Shown in pieces: positions 22,276 through 28,426 of a DNA stretch of 64,000 nucleotides. Numbering within the stretch: the first letter of the stretch is position 1; every line of letters begins with the position of its first letter. A model generated the notes under the pieces. The model saw only the letters and a program-made list of their open reading frames with translations, made no database searches and was not told the DNA's origin. Position numbers and translations under genes: made by a program. The DNA comes from Escherichia coli. Its GTDB lineage: Bacteria > Pseudomonadota > Gammaproteobacteria > Enterobacterales > Enterobacteriaceae. The stretch is taken from assembly GCF_044324785.1 (NCBI RefSeq), contig NZ_CP172127.1. One strand, 5' to 3'.

Positions 22276-23229
22276 GTGATGGCATCACTGTCGATTAATA
22301 CGCTACGCCGAATGAGCATTTGTAAAAGTCAGGCCTGGAAAGATACCCAGCGAATACTGAAGCGTAGTGGACTTGTGTACAGAGGGGAACGGTCAGAATC
22401 GTTTGATCCTGAGAAACATTTTAATCGTTATACGGTGCGTTATCTGTACCTGCTTAACATAATTGCGCTTAAGATAAGGTCGGTTAGTAAATTTTCCTGT
22501 TGGATCGAGGTGGGACAATGCCATCGTATGACTGGTAAACATTTATCTCTTAATGCCCCGCCTTTTATGCTGATTCCGCGTAGTATCCGGAGAAAAGTGG
22601 ATGGATTCAGACAGTCAAAAGGTGAAGCAACCCCAAAATCGGCTCAACCGTTCACGGGCAGTTTGTATGAGGTTTTGAGAAAGGAGAGCGATTCAGCTAA
22701 GCTGGACGCATGGATTGCTGAACTGCCTCTGAACTTGCAGGAGGAGGGAAAGGAAATCTCAGTCATGGGATTTAGTCCACGGGCTGTGGCCCGACCTGTT
22801 CTTCGGTCAGCATCCCCGACGTTTGAACTGTTTTATCAGGAGTATCAATCCCTAAGATTAAAATCTGTTTTTAAATTTGAACCAAGATTTGAACAACTTT
22901 TAACAAGACTGAGCTTTAGAAAACAATCAATTCTCAGAAAACAACAATACAGGGTTAAATCGCAATTACTGGAGAGACTGGGGAATGTGTTGTTTTTCAC
23001 GTCGCTTTATAACCAGGGATGTTTAGAGGAGTTTATAAATGCACTTGTGGAAAAGGAGGACATTTATCTGAAAATGTCCCCTGGGGAGGAAAAGGTGAAA
23101 GCACACCAGAAAATGGTTAACTACATTGAAGCGTTCTGCAACAAAATGACGGAAAAATACCTGATGCCCGCAGCAAGCAGACACTACAAAAAGAAGAAAA
23201 TCGCCAGGAGCGAAAGTGGTGAAAGTTAA
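22276..23229 (+). CDS. Hypothetical protein (317 aa, basic), cargo gene of unknown function
   Basis: Long ORF divergent from the GTPase gene; no recognisable motifs; start codon uncertain. Confidence 0.5.
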   Translation: MMASLSINTLRRMSICKSQAWKDTQRILKRSGLVYRGERSESFDPEKHFNRYTVRYLYLLNIIALKIRSVSKFSCWIEVGQCHRMTGKHLSLNAPPFMLIPRSIRRKVDGFRQSKGEATPKSAQPFTGSLYEVLRKESDSAKLDAWIAELPLNLQEEGKEISVMGFSPRAVARPVLRSASPTFELFYQEYQSLRLKSVFKFEPRFEQLLTRLSFRKQSILRKQQYRVKSQLLERLGNVLFFTSLYNQGCLEEFINALVEKEDIYLKMSPGEEKVKAHQKMVNYIEAFCNKMTEKYLMPAASRHYKKKKIARSESGES

Positions 23230-24101
23230 TCCAGTCTACCGTACAGAATCAGTTGTTCCAGAATAGCCTGCTGTGTTGTTTTCCGCTCTCTGGTCAGTCT
23301 GTCCAGAGCGCTTTTTGCGGATGGCGATATCTTTACGTTGATTTGTACCCGTTTATCTTTTTTTCCATCGATAAACTGTTTTCTGAATGCATTGTGCATC
23401 TTGTCGAAAAATCTTTCTTTTGCAGCGAATCCTAGGTGAAATTCTTTTGGCGTCAGTAAACAGGGTGTGTCTGTGGGGAATAACATTTTTAGTAAAACTA
23501 CAATGGCAATATATCTTTCGTTATCATTTACAGGATTAAACCAGGAAAGATATGTGGGTGAGATACGTGCATCAATATATTCCCATGCCCATTTCAGTTG
23601 TTCGGTATTCTTTTTAAGCCATTTGGCTTCGTTTCTCTTTTCGAGTCCCAGCCAGTTTTGATGCATTATTGAGATAATCCGATCTGCTTCCCCATAAAGG
23701 ATTAACGCATTAATCCATTTCCCTATAACATTCAGTCGTGTTTCATGACTTGAAGGAATAATTGTCATGGGGTTATCCTTCATAACGATCACCCCCTTCA
23801 AGGCAGAGTTGAACTCAGATTCATTATTAAGTTTAAGTTTTTCGGGAACTGTATGAGACATAATTAACCAGAACCAGAATGCTGCAATTTCATTTTTTCT
23901 GATCCATTCAGGTATGTGATTATCTGCCAGATTATTATCATTCAATAAATGCTCAGTTGTTTTATTTTTCCAGTCATATCTATTCACGTTATAACCGCCT
24001 TTATATTGTTTCATCTGATTACGCCTCAATCGTTTTCTTTTCTGGTGATTTTCACCATCACATGTCAGTTGTATATGCAAGGGGATCAATAAAAATATCA
24101 C
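23226..24101 (-). CDS. Hypothetical protein with a C-terminal ribbon-helix-helix-like segment (start probably the internal Met at about 24014)
   Basis: 291-aa ORF; C-terminus KRVQINVKISPSAKSALDRLTRERKTTQQAILEQLILYG resembles CopG/RHH DNA-binding motifs; convergent with and overlapping the previous gene by 4 bp. Confidence 0.5.
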   Translation of the reverse strand: MIFLLIPLHIQLTCDGENHQKRKRLRRNQMKQYKGGYNVNRYDWKNKTTEHLLNDNNLADNHIPEWIRKNEIAAFWFWLIMSHTVPEKLKLNNESEFNSALKGVIVMKDNPMTIIPSSHETRLNVIGKWINALILYGEADRIISIMHQNWLGLEKRNEAKWLKKNTEQLKWAWEYIDARISPTYLSWFNPVNDNERYIAIVVLLKMLFPTDTPCLLTPKEFHLGFAAKERFFDKMHNAFRKQFIDGKKDKRVQINVKISPSAKSALDRLTRERKTTQQAILEQLILYGRLD

Positions 24102-25711
24102 CCTGCAAGCACTTCAAAGCTGATTATGGGGATATTCTAGAACTATTCACAAAACTATTCCAGACATATCAAGAACTATTTCTTGACCTATTCATAATAA
24201 AATAAAACATGCTATCAACTACGGCTCATATTCTCCTTGGGGGTGTCGTTGTACTGTTCGACTGTTCTTGTGGTCAGATTAACAATCTGAAGAGTAAAAG
24301 CGACAGTAATCTGTCTGTTATAGTGGCGATAAAAACACTGAATGCGCATCCTGTATGTGAAATCCTGTCATGTAGAGCAGTAAGCAATGACAGACATGCA
24401 TGTTATATGTGAAGGGGGCCGGGAGACGACATAATCAGTATGGCTGTCATTCTGGTTGTAAAACGCGATCACTTTCCGGGGGTAAAAGATGATATGGAGG
24501 TTGACAAACGGTTTGCTTCGGATTGTCTTTTCTGGGGCCTGAAATACGAGGGCAGAAAAATAATTCCAGAGTAAATCTGCTCTGTTTTTAGGACAGAAAA
24601 CTCCATGCTGGCTGTAAAAGTGAAAAATTAACACCCAGTATGTATGGAAGTCTGAAGATGTTGAGAATGTCGGTATGATACTATATACACATATTTTACT
24701 AAGTATTTTTACTAAGCATTTCAGTAAGTGTTATACACGTATTTTCTACTAAGTGTTTTACCAGACATACACGTGTTTTCATAAACAGCCCTATAAGTGT
24801 TTTCATTAAGCATTGCTGTACACATTGCTTTGTCTGAAACACATCCAGTTTAGTAAATCTTTACGTTAGCTAAAATCAGTTTAAAGCTGCTGTAAAACCT
24901 TTCTGTTTAAGCAATCAATCTGCTATTCGATTTTACTGATGTTGCGTTTAACCTTTTCTGAGATTTCGAGTTTCGACGTTAGCATGAGAAAAGTATCTTT
25001 ACGCTAAATCAACCCGAACTTTCCTGAAGTAATCTGACGTTTTTTTCGATGTGCTTACGACGATTCTGTTAAACGACTTTCTGGATGTTTTGATAACAAT
25101 CAGATTGAGGCATTAACGATTCCTGACGTTTTCTTTTCCGTGTAAGGTCATTCTTTTTGTCATGAGGTTTCTTCTTGCATTGCGAAAGTGTGATGAACGG
25201 TTTTGGTGTTTTTGATTCAGATAAGGTTTACGTTATCGATGGTTAATCGTTTTTATGGTGCGTAGTGAAACGTAACTTTTTCAGGATGAGAAAATCGATT
25301 CTGATGTTGGTGATTTTTGTTCTTGTGGCGGGGTTTATCTGTAAACAGGTTTTAAACGTGTCATTCACATCCGTGATTGAGTTGTGTGATTAAGCTGTAG
25401 GTTTTGGGGTTGTTGTTGATTTGCATTACCAGGAAGCGTTCTGGTTGCGTTTCTGGTGTTTTGTTCGAATGTTCTGTGGATCCTTTTCCCTTCTGACTTT
25501 TCTCGTTGTCCATGTCGTTTTTAAATCCATTCGCTGTTCTTGAGTGTTTTTACCCTGCGTGTAGAATTATCTTTTCGTTCCGGGATGGTTTGTTCCGTTT
25601 CAATCACTCTTAATCAGAGAGTTGTAGCATTGCTCAATGCCGGATGCCGTAAAGTTTTACCGCGGTGATTAATGATGTGAAGTCAATCCAAATCAACGGA
25701 GATCTCTCATC
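24102..25711. other. About 1.6-kb non-coding, AT-rich region with short direct repeats upstream of Gp2-like genes
   Basis: No ORF above 90 aa on either strand; repeated TACTAAG motifs within 24690..24770 and two copies of GTGTTTTCAT. Confidence 0.5.
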
Positions 25712-26443
25712 ATGAATCAACCAATACACAATGCTTACTGGTTATCCCGTTTTGAAAGTATTCTCAACAGTGCCCTGGCGCAGCACCGTGCCGTCTCGTT
25801 AATCCGGGTGGATTTACGTTTCCCTGAGTATATGCCTGCCACCATCATGGATACCGATTTAGATTCAGCGGTGATTTCTCGTTTTTTTGCATCCCTGAAA
25901 GCAAAAATTCAGGCTTACCAGCGACATAAACGACGTGCCAACAAGCGTGTGCGTGCAACCACTCTGCGTTATTTCTGGTGTCGGGAGTTTGGCAAGGAAA
26001 AAGGCAGGAAACATTATCACGTGATATTACTGCTCAACAAAGATACCTGGTGCTCGCCAGGGGATTTCACCGTTCCTTCTTCGCTGGCGACACTGATCAA
26101 GCTGGCATGGTGTAGTGCTCTGCATCTTGAGCCCTGGCAGGGTAATGGACTGGTTCATTTTTCCAGGCGGACGCCTTTCCGTAAACCGACATCATCTGAT
26201 GCTCGCCCTTCTTCCGATGATACGCCTTTGTCGGGTGGATGTTCTGAAACCAGGAAGGCTTCAGACAAAAAGCCGGGTGAAGCCGCTGTTCTCTGGATCA
26301 AGCGTGGTGATGTGGAAGCGCTGCAGAAAGCCCGGAACAGAGCCAGTTATCTCGTGAAATATGAGACGAAGCAGCATGACGGTTCCGGGCAACGTAATTA
26401 TGGTTGCAGTCGTGGGCCGGGGCGTCTGCTGGATGGCAGGTGA
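25712..26443 (+). CDS. Inovirus Gp2-like / YagK-YfjJ family protein (HUH-type)
   Basis: 243 aa; HYHVILLL motif and family-typical N-terminus (AYWLSRFESILNSAL…). Confidence 0.7.
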   Translation: MNQPIHNAYWLSRFESILNSALAQHRAVSLIRVDLRFPEYMPATIMDTDLDSAVISRFFASLKAKIQAYQRHKRRANKRVRATTLRYFWCREFGKEKGRKHYHVILLLNKDTWCSPGDFTVPSSLATLIKLAWCSALHLEPWQGNGLVHFSRRTPFRKPTSSDARPSSDDTPLSGGCSETRKASDKKPGEAAVLWIKRGDVEALQKARNRASYLVKYETKQHDGSGQRNYGCSRGPGRLLDGR

Positions 26444-26769: not shown

Positions 26770-27372
26770 TTGTGGGCTGCGTATAACGGAACATATCTTA
26801 TGAATGCTATCCCTTATTTCGACTATAGCATGGCGCCCTTCTGGCCATCTTATCAGAACAAAATCATCGGCGTTCTCAACCGTGTGTTGCGCGAGCAGTC
26901 CTGCTCCCGAATACGGCGGATCCTGCTTCGTCTGCCGGGGGAACATGGCAACATCTTCAGCGACAGAAAAACCTGGTTCGGTATGGCCTTTATCGAAACC
27001 GTCAGTGCGCTGATGAATGCAACCCCCGGACGCGACCTCTGCTGGCTCCTGACACGTCATCCTGAAAAACCGGAATACCACGTGGTGCTGTGCGTCAGAC
27101 AGGAATATTTCGACGGCCCTGAGCTGGACCGGTTGATTCTGGATGCCTGGAGCAACGTACTGGGCTTCGCGTCACCGGGTGAAGCAGCACCGTACCAGAA
27201 ACAGATAACCCGGGATGTGGTGCTGGACAGTTGTTCACCGGACTGCGAAGAGAGACTCAAAGAGCTGATATGGGCGTTCAGTGATTTCGCCCGCGATCGT
27301 CGTGGTGTGCGCGATCCGGAAGCCCGTTACCTCGCCGGTAATCCCTGGTATCCCGTAGCAGGCCAGCTCTGA
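26770..27372 (+). CDS. Second Gp2-like/YagK-family paralogue (putative)
   Basis: 200 aa; EYHVVLCV motif in comparable position. Confidence 0.5.
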   Translation: MWAAYNGTYLMNAIPYFDYSMAPFWPSYQNKIIGVLNRVLREQSCSRIRRILLRLPGEHGNIFSDRKTWFGMAFIETVSALMNATPGRDLCWLLTRHPEKPEYHVVLCVRQEYFDGPELDRLILDAWSNVLGFASPGEAAPYQKQITRDVVLDSCSPDCEERLKELIWAFSDFARDRRGVRDPEARYLAGNPWYPVAGQL

Positions 27373-27440: not shown

Positions 27441-27677
27441 ATGTTGACCTCAATGACAGGTCACGACAGCGTATTGCTGCGTGCCGACGATCCCCTGATC
27501 GACATGAACTACATCACCAGCTTCACTGGTATGACCGACAAATGGTTTTACAAGCTGATCAGTGAAGGCCATTTCCCTAAACCCATCAAACTGGGGCGCA
27601 GCAGCCGCTGGTACAAAAGTGAAGTGGAGCAGTGGATGCAGCAACGAATCGAGGCATCACGAGGGGCAGCAGCATGA
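27441..27677 (+). CDS. alpA: AlpA-family phage/island regulatory protein (excisionase-like DNA-binding)
   Basis: 78 aa; …NYITSFTGMTDKWFYKLISEGHFPKPIKLGRSSRWYKSEVEQWM… typical AlpA helix-turn-helix. Confidence 0.8.
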   Translation: MLTSMTGHDSVLLRADDPLIDMNYITSFTGMTDKWFYKLISEGHFPKPIKLGRSSRWYKSEVEQWMQQRIEASRGAAA

Positions 27678-27877
27678 AACGTGTTGTAATGCCGGTACGC
27701 TGGCAATGTGCAAAATACCAGCGTTGGTATTGTGGAAATCAGCCCTGTCCCTGGTGCTGGCGACCTGCTGCCCCCGTCTGTCATTCCTCGTTCTTCGCTG
27801 TAACAGGCATCGTACCGGTCTCGGCGTGCTTTCCTGCGTACCGACACCGGTTCAGCAACATTCAAGGGGATCAAATC

Positions 27878-28426
27878 GTGCAAATAACCGAAACCGTACT
27901 TTCAGAGCCGGTGGAAATCCGGCGTTTTATTCAGCAGGCGGTGGATCACTGGCCGCGTCTGCTGGCCGTCCACTTCACACTCCATTCGGCAGAAGGAAAC
28001 ATCAACGGACAACAGATTCATGCATTCTGTACTTCCTTTTACCGACAGGTGCACGAGCGTATTACTGAACGTAATCACACGGCCAGTCCAGCACCACCGG
28101 TGGTATTACGCTGGTTGCGGGAACAACATGGAGGAGCAACAATGCGATGCCTGTTGCTGCTCAGCCAGACGAGCATTTGCCATCCACGGGTCAGTGCCAC
28201 GGTTGATGAAGAATGTTCGCAACGGGTGGATTTATTGCAACAGACATGGCGGGTGATAAGTGCTGACGGACAATGCCGGGTGGAAAGGTGTTTTCAGGCT
28301 GCCCGGGGTGATACATCCGGCCAGTATATTGCGTTAAAAACAGTTGCATTGTCTCTGGGGTTACCGGTTGTGACCGGTATTACCCATCGCCCGGTACAGC
28401 GCTGTACATTGATTACAGCTCAGTGA
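27878..28426 (+). CDS. Hypothetical protein (182 aa from GTG start with AGGGGA ribosome-binding site)
   Basis: The track ORF 27632..28426 overlaps alpA; a GTG at 27878 preceded by aagggga is a more plausible start. Confidence 0.4.
   Translation: MQITETVLSEPVEIRRFIQQAVDHWPRLLAVHFTLHSAEGNINGQQIHAFCTSFYRQVHERITERNHTASPAPPVVLRWLREQHGGATMRCLLLLSQTSICHPRVSATVDEECSQRVDLLQQTWRVISADGQCRVERCFQAARGDTSGQYIALKTVALSLGLPVVTGITHRPVQRCTLITAQ

Follow-up and report, generated by a model that had tools for sequence, protein, structure and literature searches.

The analysis of a 64,000-nt stretch of Escherichia coli DNA (hereafter the window) leads us to read, with somewhat less than even confidence, the unannotated gap in front of an HUH-nuclease gene as control DNA of composite make-up, free of coding sequence, from which the genes of a CP4-57-type genomic island diverge; its right 1.16 kb would form the cis-region of the HUH gene and carry an origin-like locus. 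The firm part of this result is a previously undescribed sequence signature, composed of Box 1 and Box 2, that accompanies the whole YagK/YfjJ family of HUH proteins. The informative signals are confined to about 280 nt (24553-24830). The sequence-only reading had taken the entire gap as a possible origin or nicking site for the downstream proteins, or a regulatory leader, a plausible class of function that is partly supported: roughly 280 nt form a cis-acting region tied to the HUH gene through Box 1, Box 2 and the adjoining repeats, whereas the left 540 nt belong to another module.

RefSeq places no feature between a minus-strand hypothetical CDS (23226-24014) and the plus-strand gene of an "inovirus Gp2 family protein" (25712-26443), so that the gap extends over 24015-25711 (1697 nt), somewhat longer than the 24102-25711 first reported. 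The region of interest in the window is 100% identical to the chromosome of E. coli SCU-115, and the surrounding element is a CP4-57/CP4-6-like genomic island of E. coli adjoining ynjB. To the left of the gap, genes for a GTPase, DUF905, DUF932, antirestriction, RadC/JAB, DUF987, YeeU/CbtA and DUF4942 proteins lie on the minus strand, and to its right the plus strand carries the Gp2 family gene, a hypothetical gene, an AlpA-type HTH gene, a further hypothetical gene, a ProQ/FinO pseudogene and IS debris. Homologues of the gap were found in 1876 of 5426 complete E. coli genomes (median two copies, maximum eight), with essentially no RefSeq annotation inside them. Nucleotide searches of K-12 CP4-57/CP4-6, phages and plasmids with the gap gave no match beyond four E. 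coli plasmids; among 50,697 phage records there were 0 sequence matches, and no similarity to filamentous-phage origins was seen. The islands that carry the gap are largely decayed, with IS fragments and pseudogenes, and any activity of the control region may therefore be vestigial. By BLAST against ten other alleles the gap resolves into a left module (24015-24552), present only in the island variant that bears the minus-strand gene at 23226-24014, and a right module (24553-25711), which is common to all island variants and goes with the HUH gene; variants with unrelated left flanks converge 10-30 nt to the left of Box 1.

The gene at 25712-26443 (+ strand) encodes a 243-aa YagK/YfjJ-family protein that matches the Pfam profiles YagK_YfjJ_C (E 2.9e-36) and REP_ORF2-G2P (E 3e-10) and has an HUH-nuclease fold. 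Its motifs RVDLRFP, H101-Y-H103-VILLL and R210..Y213-L-V-K216 are retained as RVDLRxP, H-Y-H-V-L-L-L and R-A-x-Y-L-x-K in relatives at 30-50% identity, and correspond to the motif 1, HUH and YxxK signature of Rep-class nucleases. By motifs and fold the product is firmly identified as an HUH nuclease, and the gap is thus adjoined by an endonuclease gene with the metal-binding His-U-His and the catalytic Tyr. A search with the sequence profile of the family found no solved structure, a scan of genome contigs with a single protein gave two loci only, and a literature search returned no report of nicking, binding or replication experiments on any family member. The initial count of two Gp2-like genes was roughly right: the first is confirmed by Pfam, and the second ORF (26770-27372, + strand) has no Pfam match and is a remote, degenerate HUH paralog, in which E-Y-H replaces H-Y-H, as indicated by hhalign (probability 93%, E 2.7e-7) and by BLASTP over the stretch that holds the motifs. 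As a further HUH paralog, a third ORF is doubtful (probability 12%). Downstream, an AlpA-type excisionase/regulator gene (27441-27677, + strand; Pfam Phage_AlpA, E 2e-10) is a conserved operon partner of the HUH gene: Gp2 and AlpA genes are also paired in Providencia, in Brenneria, in further lineages and on a Klebsiella plasmid. Providencia has the same order, GTPase (-), gap, HUH (+) and AlpA (+), and Brenneria shares the layout with a different uncharacterised gene in place of the GTPase. The family occurs beside AlpA in islands and plasmids, not in filamentous phages; a 4.5-kb "phage" record with a homologue was set aside as evidence of a replicon, being an unverified, low-coverage contig. 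An analogy with the AlpA antiterminator of P. aeruginosa was also dropped, that AlpA being a different and larger protein with a different site, GGGACG.

Box 1 (AATAATTCCAGAGTAAA, 24559-24575, + strand; consensus nnTAAYTnCAGAGTnAn) lies upstream of YagK/YfjJ-type HUH genes, is conserved across the family as a 12-mer and was found by comparing the upstream regions of HUH-gene homologues. Its exact 13-mer, ATAAYTCCAGAGT, occurs once per locus and always on the gene's strand in 17 loci, which include Providencia, L021 and L022. A position weight matrix (PWM) built from seven sequences was then applied to K-12 and to 20 distant IMG/VR loci (28-38% protein identity; 16 distinct), and in 14 of the 16 distinct remote loci Box 1 was the best score of the whole 5.5-kb locus, 130-630 nt upstream of the gene and on its strand, for which chance gives roughly p ~1e-15 (700-nt window, one strand, 5.5-kb loci). 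The top K-12 matches stand 130 nt upstream of yfjJ and 263 nt upstream of yagK, the Klebsiella plasmid site scores 23.3 against 10.1 for the next best, and Box 1 is unique in the window, at 24.5 against 15.4 for the runner-up. A second, terminating copy was absent from the vicinity in the scanned loci and in the window. Box 1 is a candidate for the sequence that the HUH protein recognises or nicks. A nick site in the loop of a hairpin or cruciform is typical of pMV158, pT181, Ff and CRESS origins; DNA folds of 22 lineages gave no common stem-loop around Box 1. What the window does have is a weak bidirectional terminator-like hairpin (CAGAGTAAATCTGCTCTG, 24567-24590, both strands), preceded by an A-run and followed by a T-run, that overlaps the 3' half of Box 1; its stem is poorly kept in other E. 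coli alleles and absent from other lineages.

Box 2 (24661-24689, + strand) reads TTGAGA-ATGTCGGTATGATACTA-TATACA in the window (full sequence ATGTCGGTATGATACTATATAC; family consensus TGTYGGATAGGTAWTATA) and, with a PWM trained on four sequences, follows Box 1 by 63-100 nt in 11 independent remote loci. Both boxes lie upstream of K-12 yfjJ and yagK, and likewise in Providencia and on the Klebsiella plasmid; across the family they stand about 60-100 bp apart, both on the gene's strand. For the two K-12 genome versions involved here, the coordinate offset is presumably 776. At this offset, a K-12 start site at 292365 falls 7 nt downstream of the palindromic TATAAT of Box 2, on the strand opposite yagK. 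The plus-strand part of the published Cappable-seq table lists this start, at U00096.2 position 292365, as a strong one (PMC4782308). In the K-12 yagK homologue, Box 2 is thus a sigma-70 promoter, as established by these data together with the genomic SELEX of Shimada et al., in which it is a "constitutive" RpoD promoter, TTTAGA-16-TATAAT, flagged as H-NS bound (PMC3946193). The same yagK spacer is bound by RpoH and RpoE holoenzymes (PMC5493296). Since Box 2 is a promoter in the K-12 homologue, the "regulatory leader" of the sequence-only reading is at least part of the answer. Box 2 is probably bidirectional, a property suggested by its AT-palindromic sequence, and its conserved spacer may serve as an operator. 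The window site is aligned to the K-12 site by motif only: it reads TTGAGA-17-TATACA, with an overlapping TG-n-TACTAT, and its -10 is weak.

Directly after Box 2 comes an iteron-like array (24685-24830, + strand) of about ten units of the form (TAAG|ACAC)-RTRTTTT-YAY, within which TACTAAG and GTGTTTTCAT recur. The clustered repeats noted in the sequence-only reading hold up on counting: three of the four TACTAAG matches in the 64 kb fall within 57 nt (24697-24753), GTGTTTTCAT has two exact copies only, at 24773 and 24797, 24 nt apart, and TRF reports a 13-nt array of 5.2 copies at 24694-24759 (score 53). This observation is further strengthened by the RTRTTTT core: 24685-25610 contains 10 copies of it, where dinucleotide shuffles give 2.3 +/- 1.4 (z 5.6); the repeat families D2, D3 and D5 also fall within the array. 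Among E. coli alleles the array varies in length by whole repeat units. Other lineages carry other repeats, namely GTGTTT-type repeats of 11-13 nt (x 3) at the same place in Providencia, an unrelated 22-nt unit (x 3.5; TRF 133) in L036 and 24-35-nt repeats (x 3) in L026, and the repeats after Box 2 in L021 are weaker. Repeats that differ between lineages are therefore present near the candidate nick site in the window, Providencia, L036 and L026, and their role in binding is putative.

Taken together, these elements suggest a scheme in which the HUH protein would bind the repeats and/or the Box 2 spacer and so control its own promoter, and would recognise and perhaps nick Box 1. On this scheme, 24553-24830 would be an origin-like "nick plus bind" locus at which the island, once excised, is replicated or processed. 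The main argument for such a function is the conjunction of a family-constant core with lineage-changing repeats near the promoter of the initiator. Origins of the pMV158 type and of geminiviruses are known to combine a conserved core with variable iterons next to it. That Box 1 and the repeats act as an origin or nick site we rate between rather doubtful and a little under even. The more specific proposal, an unrecognised family of rolling-circle origins served by YagK/YfjJ HUH proteins, in which nicking would take place at Box 1 (TAAYTnCAGAGT) and binding at Box 2 with the repeats, sits at the doubtful end of that range.

With a promoter at Box 2, ordinary operators for another regulator, Box 1 upstream and the repeats downstream, could also account for the layout, and an H-NS-silenced ordinary promoter/operator region is nearly as likely as the origin role. 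Such pure transcriptional control, a serious contender if short of probable, would make Box 2 the promoter, Box 1, the spacer and the repeats its operators, and the T-rich kilobase downstream an H-NS-silenced spacer or leader, with no nicking; the regulator would be AlpA, a different HTH protein of the island, or the HUH-fold protein as a DNA binder only. The RNA polymerase binding and the start site at the K-12 Box 2, with H-NS flagged there, favour this explanation, as do the GC content of 37-42%, the lack of a hairpin at Box 1, the placing of the array where a roadblock operator would sit, and AlpA as the constant operon partner. However, the catalytic His, His and Tyr are kept among relatives at 30-40% identity, which is unexpected for a mere DNA binder, and Box 1 is the same in lineages whose neighbouring regulators and repeat units differ, although an operator would normally be expected to change together with its regulator.

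Beyond the array, the origin-like reading of the cis-region continues into a T-rich stretch (24831-25610, + strand; 41% T, 16% C) that is unstructured, non-repetitive and fast-evolving. Under this reading the T-rich 0.9 kb would probably be transcribed rightward from Box 2, bound by H-NS, or both, and so would be a leader that is transcribed or else a spacer of the H-NS type. At its end lie an attenuator-like hairpin, a possible proximal promoter and a translation-initiation block that is invariant. The strand bias (T>A, G>C) would fit a non-template strand that has long been transcribed, or a strand that is frequently single-stranded. Over the right module as a whole, alleles show 70-90% identity with many indels, against 91-98% for the adjacent HUH gene, and the two identities do not track each other, which indicates that the block consists of old, recombining alleles. 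In the allele alignment the head (24553-24690) is well conserved, several patches of 20-60 nt are invariant and the tail (25630-25711) is nearly so. The T-rich stretch has four GTGTTTT-type motifs, dispersed and lying inside conserved patches. An internal degenerate tandem duplication of the stretch was considered and rejected by self-BLAST, and AA/TT helical phasing was not detected in it. Long leaders are also found elsewhere, and a long non-coding stretch before the gene is a conserved trait of the lineages examined: outside K-12, all homologues looked at are preceded by 450 nt or more of non-coding DNA, and on a Klebsiella IncF/HI1B plasmid the unannotated sequence at this place measures 2.1 kb. 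The distance from Box 2 to the gene is 0.8 kb in L021 and 1.6 kb on the Klebsiella plasmid, so the long leader is not peculiar to E. coli.

Towards the gene, three elements were delineated. The terminator scan placed a terminator-like hairpin at 25428-25465 (+ strand; ACCAGGAAGCG-TTCTGGT-TGCGTTTCTGGT, followed by the U-tract GTTTTGTT), which folds at -6 to -11.6 kcal/mol in four haplotypes and is a candidate attenuator of distal transcription; over six haplotypes, 95.5% of the cells of its part at 25428-25457 are paired, and covariation support was sought there and dismissed (0 double compensatory changes). The promoter scan gave a promoter-like site, TTGAGT-16-TAGAAT (25540-25567, + strand), a possible proximal promoter of the HUH gene that is only partly conserved, other alleles reading TTGCGT..CAGGAT and TTGTGT..TAGGTT. 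The last element is the proximal block (25630-25711, + strand), nearly invariant, with TTTTACCGCGGTGATTAAT at 25655-25673 and the ribosome-binding site GGAG at 25698-25701, and a block resembling it is also found in Providencia and L045.

The terminator-like hairpins bear on another explanation, in which the region chiefly produces non-coding RNA. The candidates are a U-rich RNA of about 770 nt that would start at Box 2 and end at the 25428-25465 hairpin, a divergent RNA of about 110 nt running leftward from Box 2 to the Box 1 hairpin, or both; either could act as a regulator, a sponge or a ProQ/FinO ligand. The strong leftward start site at the K-12 Box 2 agrees with this, and terminator-like hairpins are rightly placed on both strands, the hairpin at 25428-25457 is conserved, the composition is strand-asymmetric and the island carries a ProQ/FinO pseudogene. 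We nevertheless consider it improbable, given the absence of an Rfam match, fold z-scores near zero and the lack of covariation, and further the leftward hairpin that is not kept outside E. coli and the high divergence with indels. Fold z is 0 to +1 on both strands over 24600-25600, and sliding folds of both strands gave z about 0 except at 24480-24680, from which a structured single-strand origin in the gap was likewise rejected. A divergent small RNA from Box 2 was discarded on its weak folds. A known structured RNA was rejected as well: the best hit in Rfam 15 reached 19.9 bits against a gathering score of 45, the rest being at chance level (positions 20-30 kb scanned, and the gap at E<=10). 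The suggested "host for small RNAs" is accordingly not borne out, the covariance-model scan with Rfam being empty and the fold z-scores unremarkable.

The assertion that the gap holds no credible ORF proved correct, its longest mechanical ORF having 88 aa and none being conserved across alleles. A 44-aa ORF at 24440-24574, annotated in strain A23, is frameshifted in alleles L019, L007 and L010, and an 82-aa minus-strand ORF, called by PGAP in AVS0171 and MRE162, contains stops in most alleles, the window included. A hidden gene was rejected on these grounds, since the 44-aa, 67-aa and 82-aa ORFs are not conserved and the six-frame translation is full of stops; no frame of the gap shows residual coding.

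The left 0.54 kb is a module separate from the cis-region of the HUH gene. It holds four AMCTATTY direct repeats (24123-24193, starts 24141, 24153, 24174 and 24186, all plus-strand matches), and this cluster takes in four of the eight matches in the window. The repeats overlap a minus-strand promoter, TTGTGA-18-CATAAT (24152->24123), predicted by the promoter scan for the gene at 23226-24014, and their spacing of 11-12 bp is retained in alleles L009 and L010; the cluster is probably an operator array for this leftward hypothetical gene. The module also holds a highly conserved non-coding block of 290-350 nt (24204-24552) whose core (about 24262-24552) shows about 97% identity in alignments, against 60-80% for its flanks. 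It is present in 735 genomes, mostly at more than 95% identity; the block gave no conserved ORF and no Rfam match, and its fold z is -1.4 (+) and +0.1 (-), which is not significant. That the gap is mostly decayed or junk DNA, left over from a lost gene or filling the space between two modules, and that its low-complexity repeats arose by chance, is very improbable: the gap does evolve faster than the flanking gene, attracts spurious ORF calls, lies in an IS-ridden island and is A-rich on its minus strand like an old AT-rich coding strand, but its length and order are kept across 75%-identical alleles with invariant patches, Box 1 and Box 2 are conserved across genera, long upstream gaps occur in independent lineages, and it lacks a residual coding frame.

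Such findings matter for a protein family that has no assigned function or target and whose genes occur in enterobacterial islands by the thousand, in the two K-12 cryptic prophages of this type and on large resistance plasmids, since a strand-specific, family-wide signature beside a promoter gives biochemical work a definite substrate. Active initiators would explain how excised islands that lack conjugation or packaging genes are amplified or moved; should the proteins be inactive as initiators, a control region is still defined by the signature for a very common, unannotated island module, and it flags spurious "hypothetical protein" calls inside that module. Were the rolling-circle proposal true, CP4-57-like islands, found in about one-third of E. 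coli genomes, would replicate or be processed as single-stranded circles after AlpA-driven excision, and the same would hold for relatives in other Enterobacterales, in Pseudomonas-type islands and on large plasmids.

The origin-like locus was compared with several known systems. A plasmid leading-region Frpo/ssi element or oriT was rejected, as there is no imperfect hairpin of about 300 nt and the antirestriction, DUF932 and RadC genes are oriented away from the gap. Origins of phage-inducible islands and P4-like satellites resemble the locus in the int/AlpA-type module, the initiator-like gene and the adjacent repeats, but their initiators are helicase/primase proteins acting on theta-type origins, whereas the protein here is a small HUH domain without a helicase. 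The Ff (f1/M13) intergenic region shares the Pfam name, the REP_ORF2-G2P similarity and a non-coding region beside the initiator gene; the gap, however, has neither the hairpin-rich (+) and (-) origins nor the packaging signal, and its context is a chromosomal island. From the double-strand origin of the pMV158 family (RepB) it differs in that the nick site of the latter lies in a hairpin loop, of which none is conserved at Box 1, in showing no sequence similarity and no single-strand origin structure, and in belonging to a chromosomal island, not a plasmid. K-12 yagK (CP4-6) and yfjJ (CP4-57) encode members of the same protein family and have the same Box 1 and Box 2 upstream, although with spacers of 150-270 nt, no kilobase leader, no TACTAAG array and no nucleotide similarity to the gap. 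Geminivirus and CRESS-DNA origins have another core, a stem-loop, much smaller spacing and no counterpart of the extra 0.9-kb leader, yet they resemble the locus in their short conserved core beside lineage-specific iterons that overlap the initiator's own promoter, in a bidirectional promoter region, a property that is probable for Box 2, and in their HUH-fold initiator.

The left part of the non-coding gap preceding the gene of the 243-aa HUH protein (YagK/YfjJ family) contains a block of roughly 290-350 nt, itself non-coding (window 24204-24552), that is mostly more than 95% identical across 735 E. coli genomes, while the flanks directly beside it are just 60-80% identical in the same loci. 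This block was searched for a conserved ORF, an Rfam match and a significant fold, and none of these was found in it. At 24141-24193, the AMCTATTY motif is repeated four times in direct orientation, each time on the + strand and in some alleles at a spacing of 11-12 bp; this cluster overlaps the promoter predicted for the leftward hypothetical gene (23226-24014) and resembles an operator array.

Within the gap, RefSeq places "hypothetical protein" calls of 82 aa and 44 aa in three of the compared loci (L004 4356-4604, L019 3961-4209 and L020 2741-2875); their reading frames are not conserved, and the calls are probably spurious. Some alleles carry about 1.1 kb of additional DNA in the T-rich leader that lies in the right part of the gap, where a 176-aa gene on the - strand has been inserted (L013 4113-4643 and L014 4303-4833).

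The island copy in the window (about 15000-37000) adjoins ynjB and is probably immobile, because neither an integrase nor a tRNA is found near it and IS fragments and pseudogenes, among them a frameshifted ProQ/FinO gene, are abundant.

Between its HUH and Tyr motifs, the HUH protein has an insert of some 43 aa that is disordered and low in complexity (residues 152-194; window 26165-26293), present in the E. coli 243-aa subfamily and absent from relatives of 190-200 aa. Degenerate paralogs with a substituted catalytic His lie downstream of the HUH protein gene within the same operon (window 26770-27372 and, more doubtfully, 27632-28426), and a Klebsiella plasmid (locus L046, 5139-5705) has one operon with two HUH-family members. 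A homolog at 42% identity is encoded by the 4.5-kb record "Escherichia phage ECO111 5-P" (OR844780.1; status UNVERIFIED_ORG, coverage 3.7), which most likely represents host island DNA carried in the phage preparation.

For the K-12 yagK-yagL spacer (L003 31126-31153), entries in the published Cappable-seq table give a strong start site that is driven by the palindromic -10 of Box 2, the conserved sigma-70 promoter element, and directed away from yagK, and a second start site in the yagK leader, behind an inverted Box 2-like sequence.
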